Below are positions 1 to 10,036 of a DNA stretch of 64,000 nucleotides, in pieces. Every line of letters begins with the position of its first letter. Position 1 is the stretch's first letter. The stretch is taken from NCBI GenBank assembly GCA_038915165.1, contig JBCLDE010000002.1, positions 7,154 through 71,153 on the forward strand, given 5' to 3'. The position numbers and the translations under genes were made by a program. Source of the stretch: Candidatus Limnocylindrales bacterium (GTDB lineage: Bacteria; Chloroflexota; Limnocylindria; Limnocylindrales; CSP1-4). The notes beneath the pieces were generated by a model, which made no database searches, was not told the origin of the DNA, and saw only the letters and a program-made list of their open reading frames with translations.

Positions 1-1233
1 CGGATCGACGCCCGTCTCGATGGCAAGGCGGCCGTGCTGCACCTGCATCCGGAATTCACCGTGCATCGGGATGAAGTGCTTGGGCTTGGTCAGCCCGAGC
101 ATGAGCTTCAACTCCTCCTGGCTGGCGTGCCCCGACACATGCGCGCGCTTGATCGCGTGGTAGTACACGTTCGCGCCGGCCTTGAACAGGTTATCGATGG
201 TCCGGGAGACGTACTCCTCGTTCCCGGGGATGGGGCTGGCGCTGACGATGACCGTGTCGCCGGGCTTGATCTCGACGAAACGATGGTCGCGATTGGCCAT
301 CCGGGCGAGGCCGGCCATCGGCTCGCCCTGGGCGCCGGTGGTGGCGATGACGAGCTTGGCGTCCGGGTGATCCTTGATCTTGTCCTTCGGCACGATCCGT
401 GACGGGTCGTACTTGAGGTAGCCCAGATCGGTCGCGATCCGGAAGTTCTGCTCCATGGATCGGCCGATGACCGAGACGCTGCGGTTCATGTCCGCCGCGG
501 CGTCGAGGACCTGCTGGATGCGGGCGATGTTGCTCGCGAAGGTCGCGACGATGACTCGCCCGGTGAGCGGCTCCATGATCTCGCGGAAGGCATCGCCGAC
601 CGTTCGCTCGGAAGGCGTGTAGCCCGGGTTCTCCGCCCGGGTCGAGTCGGAGAGGAGGCACAGGACGCCCTGCTCGCCGAGTCGAGCGAGGATGGCGAAG
701 TCCGACAGCTTGCCGTCGACCGGCGTGTGGTCGAACTTGAAGTCGCCGGTGTGGACGATCGTGCCGACCGGGGTCCGCAACGCGATGCCCATGGCGTCCG
801 GGATGGAATGGCCCACCCGGAAGGGCATGACATGAAACGCCCCGATGTCGATCTCGTCGCCGGGTTCCAGGGCGACGAGCGGGTTGTTGTGGAGCTTGTG
901 CTCCTTGATCTTGTTGCCGAGCAGGCCTCGGGCGAGTTTCGACGCGTAGACGGGCACCCCCGGGAATTCGGGCAGCACGTACGGAAGCGCGCCGACATGG
1001 TCCTCATGGGCGTGGGTGATGAGGAAGGCCTTGACCTTGGAGCGGTTCTCCTTGAGGTAGGTGATGTCCGGGATGACGAGGTCGATGCCGAACATCTCCT
1101 CGTCGGGAAACATCAGCCCGCAGTCGATGACGACGATCTCGTCGCGGTACTCGAAGACGTACATGTTCTTGCCGATCTCGCCCACCCCGCCGAGCGGGAT
1201 GATCCGGAGCGGGTGGTCGTCCGTAGTTTGCAT
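1..1233 (-). CDS. rnj: Ribonuclease J (metallo-beta-lactamase/beta-CASP RNase). Starts with ATG at 1233; the C-terminus runs off the window start.
   Basis: The minus-strand frame translates to MQTTDDHPLRIIPLGGVGEIGKNMYVFEY...HAHEDHVGALPY...GDFKFDHTP. This has the HxHxDH metallo-beta-lactamase motif and beta-CASP region typical of RNase J. It is absent from the ORF track because it is truncated by the window edge. Confidence 0.85.
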   Translation of the reverse strand, partial: MQTTDDHPLRIIPLGGVGEIGKNMYVFEYRDEIVVIDCGLMFPDEEMFGIDLVIPDITYLKENRSKVKAFLITHAHEDHVGALPYVLPEFPGVPVYASKLARGLLGNKIKEHKLHNNPLVALEPGDEIDIGAFHVMPFRVGHSIPDAMGIALRTPVGTIVHTGDFKFDHTPVDGKLSDFAILARLGEQGVLCLLSDSTRAENPGYTPSERTVGDAFREIMEPLTGRVIVATFASNIARIQQVLDAAADMNRSVSVIGRSMEQNFRIATDLGYLKYDPSRIVPKDKIKDHPDAKLVIATTGAQGEPMAGLARMANRDHRFVEIKPGDTVIVSASPIPGNEEYVSRTIDNLFKAGANVYYHAIKRAHVSGHASQEELKLMLGLTKPKHFIPMHGEFRMQVQHGRLAIETGVDP

Positions 1234-3251: not shown

Positions 3252-5834
3252 CTATGCCGGGTCCTTGGCCAGGTGACGCTGCATGGCGGCCTTGCGCGAC
3301 AGGTTGACTCGGCCCTGGCGGTCCACTTCGAGCACGACGACCATGATCTCGTCGCCGACGGACACGACGTCCTCGACGGTGGGAACGTGGTAGTCGGCCA
3401 GTTCGCCGATGCGGACCAGACCTTCCTTGCCGGGCATGATCTCCACGAAGGCACCGAAGCCCATGATCCGGGTGACCTTGCCCATGTACAGGGCACCCAC
3501 CTCGACCTCACGGGTCAGGCTGTTGATCCAGTCGATCGCCTTGCGAGCATTGTCGCCGGAAACGGCCGCGATCTCAACCGTGCCGTCGTCCTGGACATTG
3601 ATCTCCGTGGACGTCTCTTCCTGGATCTTTCGGATCATCGACCCACCCTTGCCGATGATCTCGCGGATCTTCTCGGGGTTGATCTTGATCGTCGTGATAC
3701 GCGGGGCGAAGTCGCTCATGTCCGAGCGGGCCTCCGGCATGACCTGGGTCATCTTGTCAAGGATCTCCAGGCGGGCCGCCAGCGCTTGCTTGAGACCGCC
3801 GCGGATGATCGCCTCGTTGATCCCCTGGACCTTGATGTCCATCTGCAGGGCGGTGATGCCGTCCCGCGTTCCGGTCACCTTGAAGTCCATGTCGCCGACG
3901 GAGTCCTCCTTGCCGAGGATGTCGGTCAGGACCACGAACCGGCCATCCGGTTCGCTGATCAGGCCCATCGCCACGCCGGCGACCGGCGCCTTGATCGGCA
4001 CGCCCGCGTCCATGAGGGCGAGCGTCGAGCCGCACGTCGAGGCCATCGATGTCGAGCCGTTGGAGGACAGGCACTCCGACACCAGCCGGATGACGTACGG
4101 GAACTCATCGTGGCTCGGCAGGACCGGGATGAGCGCCCGCTCGGCCAGATTGCCATGCCCGATATCGCGCCGGCTCGGCCCGCGCATCGGCTTGTTCTCG
4201 CCCGTCGAATAGGGCGGGAAGTTGTAATGGTGGAGGTAGCGCTTCTCTGTCCTGGGACTGATCGTGTCGATTCGCTGGACGTCGGAGGAAGAACCGAGCG
4301 TCGCGATCGTCAAGACCTGGGTCTCGCCACGGGTGAACAGACCGGAGCCGTGCGCCCGCGGCAGCAGCCCGACCTCGACCGAGATCTGGCGGAGCTCCGT
4401 CAGGCCGCGGCCGTCCATCCGGATCCCCTCGTCGAGGGCCAGTTGGCGGCAGGTCTTCTTGTAGACAAGGTTGAACAGGCTCTTGCTGACGCGCGCCTCC
4501 CGGCGAGCGGCCTCCAGCAGACCCTTGACGTCGCCGCCGGTCCTGTTGGCGCGGACCGAGTTCGCGACCCCTTCACGGAGGCCGGTGATCCGACCAGGCA
4601 AGTCATTGCCGAACCAGATCAGGAGGTTCGCCGTGGCCTCGGCATCGGGCAGTGCCCGATGGGCCTGCGCGAGTTCGATGCCGAAGAAGTGCGACAGTGT
4701 CGGGAGCTTGTAGTTCTCGAGGTCCGGATAGCCTTCGCGGGCGATCACCAGAGTGTCGAGATACCGGCCCTGCTCGAAATGGGTCCCATCGCCGAGGGCG
4801 GCCTCGAGGAAGCCCAGGTCAAACCCGACCGAATGGCCGACGACGAGCGAGTCGCCGATGAACTTGATGGCCTGCTTTGCGGCATCGACCGGCTTGGGGG
4901 CCTTCTTGACGTCCGCGTCCATGATGCCGTGCATCTGGTTGCCCAGGATCGGCCGGCCGGGATTCACGAGGGTTGACCAACGATCGACGATCTTCCCGCC
5001 CTTGACCCTGACCGCGGCGATCTCGACCAGATCCGCCATCTTCGGGTCCGTGCCGGTCGTTTCGACGTCGACGACGACGAACTCGCGACCATCGACGACG
5101 GCCTTGGTGAAGTCCAGGACCGAACCGGTGCCGGCCTCCAGGAATGGGGTGCTCTTCGCCTTGCCGACCGCCTTGCGGAGCTCGTCCTGGATGTCGATCA
5201 GCGGCTGGAGCGCGCGATGACCGAACAGGATCGCCTCGGCCATGACATCTTCAGGCAGGAGCTTGGCCCCGGCCTCGACCATCATGATCGCGTCGCGCGT
5301 GCCGGAAACGATCAGGTCGAGTTCCGATTCTGCGAGCTGGCTGAACGTCGGGTTGACGACGAATTCGCCGCCGATCCGGCCGATGCGCACGGCCCCGACC
5401 GGCCCCTGGAACGGGATTTCGCTGATGGTCAGCGCGGCAGACGCGGCGATCGTCCCGAGGACGTCCGGCTCGTTCTCCTGGTCCGTTGAGAGGATCGTGA
5501 TGACCAGCTGGATATCGTCCTTGTAGCCCTCGGGGAACAGTGGGCGGATCGGACGGTCGGTCAGGCGGGCGGCCAGGGTGGCAGCCTCCGAGGCTCGCGC
5601 CTCGCGCTTGATGAACCCGCCCGGGATCTTGCCGGCGGCGTACATCCGTTCCTCGAACTCCACCGTCAGAGGGAAGAAGTCGAGACCGGGACGAGGATCG
5701 GACCGGTTGGCCGTGCCGAGCACGAACGTGTCACCGTATCGAACGGTGACGGCGCCGCCGGCGAGCCGTGCAAGCTTGCCCGTCTCGATGGTCAGCGTGC
5801 GGCCACCGAGCTGCGTCTCGAACGTGTGAGTCAA
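3252..5834 (-). CDS. pnp: Polynucleotide phosphorylase (860 aa) carrying an inserted DEDDh 3'-5' exonuclease domain between RNase PH core 1 and core 2. The start codon is TTG.
   Basis: The N-terminal RNase PH core is MTHTFETQLGGRTLTIETGKLARLAGGAVTVRYGDTFVLGTA... The second core is ...GRGLTELRQISVEVGLLPRAHGSGLFTRGETQ... The KH domain (IREIIGKGGSMIRKIQEETS) and S1 domain (GALYMGKVTRIMGFGAFVEIMPGKEGLVRIGELAD) are present. Residues about 248-412 carry the inserted exonuclease. An AAGGAGG SD lies upstream of the TTG. Confidence 0.9.
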   Translation of the reverse strand: MTHTFETQLGGRTLTIETGKLARLAGGAVTVRYGDTFVLGTANRSDPRPGLDFFPLTVEFEERMYAAGKIPGGFIKREARASEAATLAARLTDRPIRPLFPEGYKDDIQLVITILSTDQENEPDVLGTIAASAALTISEIPFQGPVGAVRIGRIGGEFVVNPTFSQLAESELDLIVSGTRDAIMMVEAGAKLLPEDVMAEAILFGHRALQPLIDIQDELRKAVGKAKSTPFLEAGTGSVLDFTKAVVDGREFVVVDVETTGTDPKMADLVEIAAVRVKGGKIVDRWSTLVNPGRPILGNQMHGIMDADVKKAPKPVDAAKQAIKFIGDSLVVGHSVGFDLGFLEAALGDGTHFEQGRYLDTLVIAREGYPDLENYKLPTLSHFFGIELAQAHRALPDAEATANLLIWFGNDLPGRITGLREGVANSVRANRTGGDVKGLLEAARREARVSKSLFNLVYKKTCRQLALDEGIRMDGRGLTELRQISVEVGLLPRAHGSGLFTRGETQVLTIATLGSSSDVQRIDTISPRTEKRYLHHYNFPPYSTGENKPMRGPSRRDIGHGNLAERALIPVLPSHDEFPYVIRLVSECLSSNGSTSMASTCGSTLALMDAGVPIKAPVAGVAMGLISEPDGRFVVLTDILGKEDSVGDMDFKVTGTRDGITALQMDIKVQGINEAIIRGGLKQALAARLEILDKMTQVMPEARSDMSDFAPRITTIKINPEKIREIIGKGGSMIRKIQEETSTEINVQDDGTVEIAAVSGDNARKAIDWINSLTREVEVGALYMGKVTRIMGFGAFVEIMPGKEGLVRIGELADYHVPTVEDVVSVGDEIMVVVLEVDRQGRVNLSRKAAMQRHLAKDPA
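4599..5093 (-). other. DnaQ/RNase T-like DEDDh exonuclease domain embedded in PNPase, at the position of the alpha-helical domain
   Basis: Exo I motif is FVVVDVETTG (D, E). Exo II motif is LVVGHSVGFDLGFL (D). Exo III motif is YKLPTLSHFFGIELAQAHRALPDAEATANLL (H...D). All five catalytic residues of the DEDDh superfamily are present and in order. Confidence 0.7.
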
Positions 5835-5920
5835 GGGAACAGTTCCTCCTTGATCGTGGAGGAGGGCGACGACCTTTGAGCGGGTGGGCCGACTTCGCGG
5901 GCTGAGCGTCGAACGCGACG

Positions 5921-5945
5921 GGACCCCGGGCGATGCCCAGGGTCC
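5921..5945 (-). promoter_or_regulatory. GC-rich stem-loop (11 bp stem, 3 nt loop) in the rpsO-pnp intergenic/pnp leader. It is a candidate RNase III processing/autoregulatory hairpin. A second small hairpin (cctcct...aggagg, about 5845-5866) could sequester the pnp SD.
   Basis: The plus strand reads ggaccccgggc-gat-gcccagggtcc. No U tract follows, so it is unlikely to be a simple terminator. In other bacteria the pnp leader carries an RNase III-cleaved hairpin used for autoregulation. Confidence 0.35.
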
Positions 5946-5958
5946 AGGAGCGGCGGCG

Positions 5959-6374: not shown

Positions 6375-6575
6375 GCCCTGCCGACCGGCCCGCGGCCATC
6401 GCCCGGGCCATTCGCGTGTTCCACCACGGAACGGTTTCGCGATGAATGCCTCGTGGATGGAAGCCGATGATGCGTCCCGCTGCAGTCTGGGTGAAGGATC
6501 ACGCTCAGCTGTGCGAAAACCGTTCCGGGGCGGAACACTTGGCTGATGCGGGGCCTCGTGCCGACCGTTGGCTCG

Positions 6576-6607
6576 CCCGCTCTTGCCCGCTCTTGCCCGC
6601 TCTTGCC
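6576..6607. repeat. Tandem repeat, 10-nt unit (tcttgcccgc) x about 3.5, immediately upstream of the adenosyltransferase start
   Basis: The sequence reads cccgctcttgcccgctcttgcccgctcttgcc. Confidence 0.9.
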
Positions 6608-6646
6608 ATGCCCCCGCCCACGTCTGGAGTGCAGCATAATGCGGCC

Positions 6647-7210
6647 ATGCCGCGCCTGACGAGGATCTACACGAAGACCGGTGATAAGGGGACGACCGGC
6701 CTGGGCGGTGGCGAGCGCGTCCCGAAGGATTCGCCCCGAGTGGCCGCCTACGGCACGGTCGACGAACTGAACTCGCAGCTCGGCCTCGCGTTGGCGACCG
6801 GACTGTGCGAGCGCCTTGCCGCGGTCCTGCCCGGAATCCAGAACGAGCTGTTCGACGTTGGCTCCGACTTGTGCTGGCCGTCCGAGGACCCACGCCGGTC
6901 GCGGATACCGACCGTGGAAGCCCGCCACGTCGAAGCGCTTGAGCGCCTCATCGACGAGCTCAACGAGGTCGTCGGACCGCTCGCGAACTTCCTCCTGCCG
7001 GGCGGATCGACGGGCGCGGCCCAGCTCCATGTCGCGCGGACGGTCTGCCGCCGTGCCGAGCGCGAGACCGTCGGCCTGGCCCGTGATGCGACGATCGGCG
7101 AGTTCGTCATCCCCTACCTCAACCGCCTTTCGGACGCGCTGTTCGTCATGGCTCGCTACGAGAACCACGAACGCGGCGTCGCTGAGCCGCTCTGGCGACC
7201 GGGGTTCTAG
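6647..7210 (+). CDS. PduO-type ATP:cob(I)alamin adenosyltransferase (MMAB family)
   Basis: The protein reads [48 protein letters not shown]...ELFDVGSDL..., the hallmark N-terminus of PduO-type ATR. The ORF track starts at 6446; the internal ATG at 6647 matches the family start. Confidence 0.8.
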
Positions 7211-9016: not shown

Positions 9017-10036
9017 TCAGCGCCCGAGCGCGTCGACCAGGCGCGTGGCCTCGGCCAGGACCGCGGGCCGAGCTTCATCGAGTGGCGCCTCGACCGTCGC
9101 GCCAGCAGCTCGGGGGTGCCCGCCCCCACCGAACCGACCGGTCAGGACCGTGGCATCGACGCCGCCGGGCTTCGTCCGGACGCTGATCCGAGTGGACCGG
9201 CCGGCCTCCTTGAACAGGATGGCGACCTCGGCGGCCTCCGCCTGTGAGAGCAGGTCGATGATGCCCTCGGAGTGGGCGCGATCGGCACCCGTGGCAGTGA
9301 TGTCCGCTTCGGTCAGGCTGGACCAGACGATCCGGCCGTCATCCGCGCTTTCGAGTCGGTCCAGCACGCGACCGAAGAGGCGCAATTGGACGTCCGGCTT
9401 GGAGCGGTAGAGACGGCGCGAGATGTCCGACAACGGGGCGCCAGCCTCCAGCAGGGCGGCGGCCACCGTGAGCGTGCGCGGGGTCGCATTCGGATGGGCG
9501 AACGTGGCGGTGTCCATGACGATGCCAGCCATCAGGGTCGCGGCCAGCATCCCATCGCCGGCATCCAGCGGCACGCCGAGGCGCCCGGCGAGGAGCGTGA
9601 TCAGCTCACAGGTCGCGGCCGCCCTGGGGTCGATCCAGTCCGCTTCACCAGCCGACTCGTTGGAGGCGTGGTGATCGATGATGACCCGTGGCAACCGGGC
9701 GAAGAGGTCCGTGTGACGAGCGCCGACCTCCCCAACCCGCTCAAGCGAGCCGCAGTCGGAGATGACCAGCAGGTCGTATGCGGCATCGGCATCCGGATCT
9801 GTGCGGAAGCGATCCACGCCGGCGATGAAGCGGTACAGCGGCGGGACCGGATCCGTGCAGACCGCATCGGCCGACCCGCCGAGCGCCTCGACGAGATGCA
9901 CGACGCCGAGTGTCGCGCCAAGCGTGTCCGCGTCGGGATTCTCGTGGCTGACCGCCAGCACGCGCCGCGCCCCCCGCAGCCGCTCGACGACGAGCGCTGG
10001 GACGGCGTCCAGATACGGGCTGAGGTCGACGGTCAT
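9017..10036 (-). CDS. nrnA: DHH/DHHA1 phosphoesterase (NrnA-type oligoribonuclease / pAp phosphatase)
   Basis: The N-terminal DHH region reads RVLAVSHENPDADTLGATLGVVHLV...LVISDCGS...IDHHASN. The GGGH motif sits at the C-terminus (DHHA1). Confidence 0.8.
   Translation of the reverse strand: MTVDLSPYLDAVPALVVERLRGARRVLAVSHENPDADTLGATLGVVHLVEALGGSADAVCTDPVPPLYRFIAGVDRFRTDPDADAAYDLLVISDCGSLERVGEVGARHTDLFARLPRVIIDHHASNESAGEADWIDPRAAATCELITLLAGRLGVPLDAGDGMLAATLMAGIVMDTATFAHPNATPRTLTVAAALLEAGAPLSDISRRLYRSKPDVQLRLFGRVLDRLESADDGRIVWSSLTEADITATGADRAHSEGIIDLLSQAEAAEVAILFKEAGRSTRISVRTKPGGVDATVLTGRFGGGGHPRAAGATVEAPLDEARPAVLAEATRLVDALGR

Follow-up and report, generated by a model that had tools for sequence, protein, structure and literature searches.

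A polynucleotide phosphorylase with a DEDDh exonuclease domain inserted in its helical linker in a group of uncultured Chloroflexota

Polynucleotide phosphorylase (PNPase) is one of the best-studied enzymes of RNA decay, and an architecture of five parts is regarded as universal for it, from bacteria to organelles. In the bacterial enzymes (E. coli, S. aureus, C. crescentus and Streptomyces PNPase/GPSI), a first RNase PH core is followed by a helical linker, a second RNase PH core, a KH domain and an S1 domain. The phosphorolytic active site of the E. coli enzyme, in core 2, is formed by R398/R399, the S437-S439 phosphate loop, D486, D492 and K494. In the E. coli crystal structures, the helical domain is found on the ring face opposite KH/S1 (PMC2723993). 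In several systems, such a ring acts alongside or ahead of hydrolytic exonucleases. The RNA degradosome of Caulobacter crescentus, composed of RNase E, PNPase, RhlB and RNase D, unites PNPase with a hydrolytic exonuclease of the DEDD family (PMC4245959); RNase D belongs to the DEDDy type and has HRDC domains. In human mitochondria, REXO2 works downstream of PNPase-SUV3 (PMC7261184). The eukaryotic RNA exosome, a ring of RNase PH fold with S1/KH domains, cooperates with hydrolytic exonucleases, among which Rrp6 is a DEDD-family enzyme, and the plant exosome ring retains phosphorolytic activity, with both chemistries in one machine (PMC5735172).

The pnp gene described here was found in a Ca. 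Limnocylindria-type Chloroflexota bacterium. All coordinates are positions in the window, i.e. the whole 64,000-nt stretch of DNA that was analysed, and the gene and its features are on the minus strand. It occupies 3252..5834 as one ORF of 860 codons plus stop, starts with TTG and encodes an 860-aa product in which RNase PH core 1, a DEDDh/RNase_T domain, RNase PH core 2, KH and S1 follow each other. An earlier note, made from the sequence alone, had claimed a single 860-codon pnp frame with PH1, PH2, KH and S1; this claim held with Pfam, NCBIfam and the ORF list. The TIGR03591 PNPase model (942 bits for a cutoff of 525) and the NF008805 equivalog (937 bits for a cutoff of 471) were both matched in two stretches, on either side of the insert. 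The product is the housekeeping PNPase of the organism. It shares with the described bacterial PNPases the module order, identical phosphorolytic residues and the rpsO-pnp operon, but differs by about 160 extra residues which form a complete DEDDh domain in the helical linker.

In Pfam, RNase_PH was matched in two stretches (E=3e-53), as was RNase_PH_C. On these matches and the alignment to solved PNPases, RNase PH core 1 with the first linker helices was assigned to aa 1-227 (5154..5834). Its channel loop F74-I-K-R77 (5604-5615), FFRR in E. coli, is invariant at three of its positions and almost invariant at F74. RNase PH core 2 (aa 453-700, 3735..4478), supported by Pfam, by alignment to the E. 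coli and S. aureus PNPases and by its invariant residues, contains the phosphorolytic site: R555/R556 (4167-4172), the loop G593-S-T-S596 (4047-4058) and D644, D650 and K652 (3879-3905) align with the SRR/GSSS/GDMDFK motifs of the solved PNPases and are invariant across 18 orthologues. The KH region (3510..3734, Pfam KH_1 match at aa 714-771) and the S1 region (3285..3509, Pfam match at aa 777-848) complete the protein.

Upstream of the gene, the rpsO-pnp leader (5835..5958) has a minimum free energy fold with z=-2.4, including a GC-rich hairpin (5921-5945). In this fold, the Shine-Dalgarno sequence AAGGAGG (5845-5851), 10 nt upstream of the TTG start, is paired with the anti-SD CCUCCUCC (5858-5865), and both halves of the pairing are kept in most of the orthologous leaders (about 10 of 15). 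RNAalifold gave no consensus fold for the rpsO-pnp leaders, whose alignment is gappy, and no matches were obtained when the whole window was scanned for Rfam families and tRNAs.

The complete DEDDh (DnaQ/RNase_T) 3'-5' exonuclease domain covers aa 250-410 (4605..5087). It carries Exo I (VVDVETTG, D256/E258, 5061-5069), Exo II (VGHSVGFDLGFL, D339, 4818-4820) and Exo III (YKLPTLSHFFG...HRALPDAEA, H392...D397, 4644-4661), and it meets the criterion of an RNase H-like alpha/beta fold. The earlier note had listed these three motif strings, all of which are present with their catalytic D/E/D/H/D aligned, and had placed the insert at aa 248-412, correctly converted to nt 4599-5093. The HMM scans which it proposed as a check were run and gave strong DnaQ-like matches. 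RNase_T (PF00929) was matched by aa 253-405 over profile positions 1-164 of 164 with 96.4 bits for a cutoff of 24 (E=3e-27), and DEDD-exonuclease models of NCBIfam were matched with a best E-value of 1e-40.

The pentad D256, E258, D339, H392 and D397 is invariant in 18 full-length orthologues, as are T259, T260, H302-G303, G333-H334 and F338 around the motifs. It could be argued that the DEDDh part has lost catalysis and is merely a structural or RNA-binding module, as its dN/dS (about 0.41) is above that of the PH cores (about 0.2). This reading is very hard to sustain: neither the pentad nor the motif residues next to it have changed in a domain whose pairwise identity drops to about 44% among the sequences compared. 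The insert is under purifying selection, although it changes more quickly than the PH cores. Both catalytic centres of the fusion are intact and conserved; that the DEDDh domain is enzymatically active is inferred.

The fusion itself could have been an artefact, either a chimeric assembly or two neighbouring genes joined by a frameshift error. In favour of this view, none of the relatives listed in a word-indexed protein search was longer than 571 aa, and on some very long contigs the PH, exo and KH/S1 parts of a relative appear as separate genes. These split copies, however, are carried by long-read contigs full of indels, in which splits or fusions also affect RNase J, asd, ribF and rpsO, and tblastn recovered the 860 aa in full, colinear over the breaks in frame. 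At the pnp locus, a single stop-free frame was found in 22 of 24 species-representative genomes (Chloroflexota, Ca. Limnocylindria-type MAGs). In 17 of the 24, all independent, the whole of about 860 aa was covered at 69-92% identity, with short-read MEGAHIT/SPAdes contigs among them. Full-length fusion proteins of 860-882 aa are also recorded in JGI/IMG, and another one, P0137, has 864 aa. The GC content is even across the insert region, which contains no stop codon. The artefact is all but ruled out and was rejected on the colinear tblastn matches, the stop-free orthologous loci and the full-length database members. The PNPase-DEDDh fusion is genuine, encoded by one ORF and clade-wide in one group of uncultured Chloroflexota. 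As the orthologues reach down to 69% identity, the fusion is old. The earlier note had held that its claim would fall without a DnaQ-like hit, with catalytic residues failing to align, with a stop codon in the insert, or with relatives having pnp and a separate exonuclease gene. None of these was met, the relatives having one continuous gene whose apparent splits are long-read indel artefacts.

The position of the insert was defined by comparison with known structures. Solved PNPases in the PDB copy align only to aa 4-222/227 and 452/453-853; none has a DEDDh insert, all of them aligning in two blocks which omit aa 228-452. Where the E. coli and S. aureus PNPases have a helical segment of about 65-73 residues, this protein has 225, so that about 160 residues are gained in net terms. 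The proposal that the extra residues are found at the position of the helical domain held in a refined form: the DEDDh domain is placed within the helical linker domain, with helices retained on both sides, and does not replace it. On the N-side, the linker (aa 228-249, 5088..5153) contains a short helix predicted by AF2 at 238-247 and is the least constrained segment (dN/dS 0.55). On the C-side, the linker helices (aa 411-452, 4479..4604) are supported by invariant columns and by an AF2 helix at 394-432 seen in both models. The AF2-predicted helices of the region are 210-223, 238-247, 394-432, 436-447 and 451-469. PF03726, the all-helical domain linking the PH cores, was not matched by the native protein in Pfam. 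After in silico deletion of the exo domain, the only match to this profile was a weak one, below the cutoff (E=0.006-0.02): positions 52-80 of 81 aligned with the helix at about aa 448-475, the last one ahead of PH core 2.

In the AF2 prediction, the Exo III helix runs unbroken into the linker, to aa 432, suggesting a rigid mount and no flexible tether. The full-length AF2 model, built with an alignment of database fragments as input, is poor (mean pLDDT 57, below 50 in the C-terminal half), and for this reason no inter-domain docking is claimed. A location of the exonuclease site on the ring face opposite KH/S1, as the earlier note had put it, agrees with the E. coli crystal structures and is inferred for this protein.

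The nearest kin of the inserted domain are exonucleases of the PolC, DinG and Pol III epsilon type; neither Orn/REXO2, by sequence and structure, nor RNase T was borne out as its closest relative within the DEDDh superfamily. The dnaQ-family domain model TIGR00573 was barely exceeded (72.3 bits for a cutoff of 71.5). This match accounts for the JGI label 'DNA polymerase III epsilon subunit family exonuclease', and its score is no evidence for a role in replication. A second, more distant PNPase-DEDDh fusion was not found among the 150 top-scoring of 49,491 profile hits; the long proteins with higher scores carried several DnaQ copies and were of the Cho-like, PolC, DinG and BRCT kinds.

The kinship raises the possibility that the inserted domain is a DNA exonuclease. 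We consider this unlikely. The PolC proofreading domain, the DinG N-terminal exonuclease and Pol III epsilon have a DNA polymerase or helicase as host, whereas the host here is an RNA phosphorylase, a canonical RNA-decay enzyme in a canonical rpsO-pnp operon, whose KH/S1 RNA-binding domains and RNA channel loop are intact. In this subgroup, DEDDh enzymes frequently tolerate ribose as well as deoxyribose (DinG is one case, and RNase T was crystallised with DNA), so that relatedness leaves the substrate undecided, and the UDG linkage is possibly mere synteny.

The reading which we favour, with only a modest margin of confidence, is that the protein is a dual-chemistry 3'-5' exonuclease acting on RNA; its activity, substrate and docking are inferred. 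One polypeptide would combine phosphorolytic (NDP-releasing) and hydrolytic (NMP-releasing) chemistry. In the trimer, the inserted domains would form three hydrolytic sites, Mg2+-dependent and degrading 3' to 5', away from KH/S1 on the other face of the ring. Their base would be the helical domain; the E. coli counterpart of this domain borders a side pore through which the phosphorolytic site is reached. The DEDDh site would take RNA 3' ends poorly handled by phosphorolysis, the candidate substrates being short limit oligonucleotides left by PNPase, 3' ends where PNPase stalls, or RNA generally when phosphate is scarce. Orn/REXO2, DEDDh enzymes which finish the short oligoribonucleotides left by PNPase, provide the functional model for this hypothesis. 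An active hydrolytic exonuclease, RNA rather than DNA as its substrate and a cooperation of the two sites rest on inference only.

Alternatively, the DEDDh domain could work apart from the RNA path of PNPase, without hand-over between the sites, the trimer simply displaying three small exonucleases for tasks such as the clearance of dinucleotides or linearised cyclic dinucleotides, or the maturation of stable RNA 3' ends. In favour of independence, conservation is lowest in the linkers (dN/dS 0.55-0.60), no geometry connects the two sites and DEDDh domains are fused to many unrelated partners. Against it, the insertion point is the same in all orthologues, the predicted rigid helix and the invariant basic linker residues R415, R428, K451, K459 and R463 suggest a fixed geometry, and an internal insertion is costlier than an end fusion if only tethering is needed. 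Independence of the domain is judged improbable.

A bolder version of the dual-chemistry reading, which remains no more than a possibility, sees the protein as a bacterial equivalent of the exosome and its hydrolases, complete in itself. RNA would be taken in via KH/S1 and through the ring channel; the 3' end would be partitioned or passed between the phosphorolytic site and a rigidly mounted DEDDh site on the distal face. The resemblance to the exosome is convergent and the arrangement is not homologous: the exosome hydrolases are separate subunits (Rrp6, DEDDy; Rrp44, RNase II type), whereas here a DEDDh domain is covalently inserted. The C. crescentus degradosome differs likewise, its link being non-covalent via the RNase E scaffold.

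No earlier description of a PNPase-DEDDh fusion was found in the literature searched, out of whose reach were most subscription-journal papers. The statement of the earlier note that the architecture is undescribed holds within this scope; the sequences themselves are public, in hundreds, under generic names. Their automated labels are inconsistent (PNPase, 'exonuclease domain-containing protein', 'DNA polymerase III epsilon family exonuclease'), and the architecture has therefore been hidden in the databases. The fusion protein lends itself readily to expression, to mutagenesis at each of its sites and to cryo-EM. A clade-wide PNPase variant whose ring contains a second exonuclease site of different chemistry would be a natural experiment on how labour is split between phosphorolytic and hydrolytic decay. 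It would also bear on what the helical domain, still little understood, and its side pore do, and on how PH-ring machines, e.g. the eukaryotic exosome, came to depend on attached hydrolases. If the bolder reading were true, these oligotrophic soil and freshwater Chloroflexota could possess an RNA decay that runs to completion, past obstacles and independently of phosphate.

The pnp open reading frame (3252..5834, minus strand; 860 codons) begins with a TTG codon, and an AAGGAGG Shine-Dalgarno sequence is found 10 nt 5' of this start (5845-5851). Pfam analysis of the encoded protein revealed two RNase_PH and two RNase_PH_C domains, a KH_1 domain (aa 714-771), an S1 domain (aa 777-848) and a complete match to RNase_T/DEDDh PF00929 (aa 253-405, profile positions 1-164 of 164; 96.4 bits for a cutoff of 24, E=3e-27). 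In NCBIfam, the PNPase equivalog TIGR03591 was matched in two stretches (942 bits for a cutoff of 525), and the mid-protein region was recognized by DEDD-exonuclease, DinG, PolC and epsilon models with E-values down to 1e-40. Solved PNPases align in two blocks, aa 4-222/227 and then aa 452/453 to 853, which leaves 225 residues where the E. coli and S. aureus enzymes have a helical segment of 65-73 residues, and therefore indicates a net gain of about 160 residues. The GC content of the insert is flat, without any shift across the region. Judged by the defining features which were tested, the protein belongs to the PNPase family and the insert to the DnaQ-like DEDDh family; the insert belongs to neither the Orn nor the RNase T subfamily. 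The earlier note had described a pnp gene with a built-in DEDDh domain at aa 248-412 (nt 4599-5093): the observation held in the reading frame, Pfam, NCBIfam and structure alignments, the coordinates are correct and all quoted motif strings were found in the protein.

A fusion of this kind could be an assembly or frameshift artefact. When the insert and both junctions were used as query in a word-indexed search, RNase_T and PNPase domain combinations were found in about 100 of 120 relatives, with 571 aa as the greatest length even where the contig extended over hundreds of kilobases. On three such contigs, "PH + exo", "exo" and "KH + S1" appear as separate genes. The RNase J, asd, ribF and rpsO genes are likewise split or fused on these three contigs, and by tblastn the whole 860-aa protein is colinear on them across one to three frame changes (75-88% identity); given these observations, separate pnp and exonuclease genes were rejected in favour of long-read indel errors. 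In a scan of species-representative genomes, loci were required to match the whole insert and both junctions, and at least 24 were obtained. One stop-free frame spans everything held by the contig in 22 of the 24 and covers the whole protein of about 860 aa in 17 (69-92% identity); the stop-free loci include MEGAHIT (k141) and SPAdes (NODE) short-read contigs and also long-read contigs. The window protein is present in NCBI, in a 90%-identity cluster of 375 members which includes several full-length JGI entries of 860-882 aa. Furthermore, an exhaustive profile search returned a protein of 864 aa (P0137), 69% identical overall, in which the insert occupies the identical position. A chimeric or frameshifted origin of the fusion is ruled out, and almost nothing is left of the artefact explanation.

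In the long-read "contig_N" assemblies carrying the orthologous pnp loci L001, L002, L003, L014 and L024 (L001-L003 from ENA ERZ25039488-536), frequent indels split or fuse pnp, rnj, asd and ribF-rpsO. As a result of such assemblies, protein databases contain many spurious "exonuclease" or "PNPase" fragments of this family (180-570 aa), and surveys of domain architecture could be misled by them.

The DEDDh pentad (D256, E258, D339, H392 and D397) is invariant across 18 full-length orthologues, as are the typical motif neighbours T259, T260, H302-G303, G333-H334 and F338; a catalytically dead DEDDh domain is very unlikely. The phosphorolytic residues R555/R556, the phosphate loop G593-S-T-S596, D644, D650 and K652 are equally invariant. 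Rough Nei-Gojobori estimates (median over all 153 pairs) gave dN/dS values of 0.17 for PH1, the first RNase PH core, 0.21 for PH2, the second, 0.29 for KH, 0.11 for S1, 0.41 for the DEDDh domain, with 0.55 and 0.60 in the two linkers. For sequences this divergent and of this GC content, the absolute figures cannot be relied on, but their order is informative; on this rough estimate purifying selection acts on the insert, though with roughly twofold weaker constraint than on the PH cores.

The exonuclease appears to sit within the helical linker domain rather than in place of it, and might be rigidly mounted; only the last helix was recognized by Pfam as PNPase helical domain, below threshold. 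The full-length structure model (mean pLDDT 57) is poor in the C-terminal half, because the alignment there was shallow. The helical domain of E. coli PNPase occupies the torus face opposite KH/S1 and helps to form a pore, which offers another way into the active site (PMC2723993). By analogy, the same distal-face and pore placement is inferred for the window protein.

The named carriers are all Chloroflexota: "Candidatus Limnocylindrales" (placed in class Ca. Limnocylindria), "uncultured Chloroflexia" and "Chloroflexota bacterium" MAGs. A few small contigs (L008, L019, L020 and those of proteins P0001, P0007, P0008 and P0053) bear other bin labels, namely Verrucomicrobiia, Patescibacteria, Polarisedimenticolia, Saccharimonadia and Acidoferrum. 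Over the insert region their pnp shares 65-83% identity with that of the window, so they are probably mis-binned and are not evidence of a broader distribution. Outside the PNPase-DEDDh family, identity drops abruptly to 48% or less, over the exonuclease core alone, and the matching proteins are unrelated ones. They comprise PolC (about 1430-1455 aa), DinG-type exo-helicases (930-990 aa, several of them found in other Chloroflexota), small DnaQ-like proteins that stand alone, Cho-like triple-exo/GIY-YIG/UVR proteins, exo-BRCT proteins and a single FAN1-HTH/VRR-NUC/exo protein. The 150 best-scoring of the 49,491 profile hits contained no other PNPase fusion at a greater distance. Unusual fusions with the same exonuclease subfamily were also encountered (P0143, P0232 and P0155), comprising three tandem RNase_T with GIY-YIG and UVR (1045 aa), FAN1-HTH with VRR-NUC and RNase_T (736 aa), and a PolC with two exo domains (1631 aa).

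All close relatives of the insert belong to DNA-metabolism proteins, which makes action on DNA or R-loops the main rival to a role on RNA; it is considered less likely but remains possible. However, DinG, the closest characterised relative, also cuts RNA in hybrids, and single-stranded RNA with Mn2+ (PMC12525004), so relatedness leaves the substrate undecided.

The rpsO-pnp operon is canonical. Upstream of truB-ribF-rpsO-pnp lies an NrnA-like DHH/DHHA1 gene (9020-10036, minus strand); if it encodes a nanoRNase, the organism is already equipped for short oligoribonucleotides. Downstream are asd, UDG and RNase J (metallo-beta-lactamase, beta-CASP, RMMBL; 1-1230, minus strand, cut off by the window start), and this pnp-asd-udg-rnj order, kept in L002 and L003, places two major RNA-decay nucleases less than 5 kb apart. 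Between ribF and rpsO, the opposite strand carries a PduO-type cobalamin adenosyltransferase gene (6545-7207, plus strand). The slot just upstream of rpsO is variable among relatives: it holds an opposite-strand glycosyltransferase gene in L002, a same-strand GFO/IDH/MocA oxidoreductase gene in L001 and none in L003.

In the minimum-free-energy fold of the leader, CCUCCUCC (5858-5865, minus strand) pairs with the pnp Shine-Dalgarno sequence, and about 10 of 15 orthologous rpsO-pnp leaders retain both halves. The pairing resembles a Shine-Dalgarno-sequestering hairpin, a potential control point for pnp translation and perhaps a means of autoregulation. A GC-rich hairpin, GGACCCUGGGC-AUC-GCCCGGGGUCC (5921-5945, minus strand), starts 14 nt past the rpsO stop codon without a U-tract and is kept with sequence variation in closer relatives; like the hairpin of the E. 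coli pnp leader, it may have a role in processing or stability. On a gappy leader alignment, RNAalifold returned no consensus for it. Neither tRNA/tmRNA genes nor Rfam families at gathering threshold were detected in the whole 64-kb window (1-64000).

The architecture is real and clade-wide, and apparently unremarked. The full-text literature searched, which left out most subscription-journal papers, yielded no account of a PNPase into which a DEDD exonuclease is inserted, and the earlier claim that it is undescribed held within that limit. The sequences themselves are already public, as "polyribonucleotide nucleotidyltransferase", "DNA polymerase III epsilon subunit family exonuclease" or "exonuclease domain-containing protein". 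The interpretation of a hydrolytic nuclease grafted onto a phosphorolytic one is supported as far as sequence analysis reaches, the function and mechanism being only inferred.

One polypeptide carries two intact, conserved nuclease centres of different chemistry, with a fixed insertion point. In the trimer, three sites of hydrolytic 3'-5' exonuclease action would lie close to the distal face and the side pore; that these share a trimer without any coupling, the domain being only tethered, is considered unlikely. Phosphorolysis requires phosphate, and PNPase leaves short oligonucleotides that resist its further action, while lesions such as 8-oxo-G cause it to stall (PMC11572968). We lean towards a DEDDh site which handles RNA 3' ends poorly processed by phosphorolysis, its activity and substrate being inferred. 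The NrnA-like gene, if a nanoRNase, weighs against the "built-in nanoRNase" version of this hypothesis. As a working model we take the Orn/REXO2 step which comes after PNPase or, alternatively, the plant exosome, where hydrolytic exonucleases work alongside a phosphorolytic PH ring (PMC5735172).
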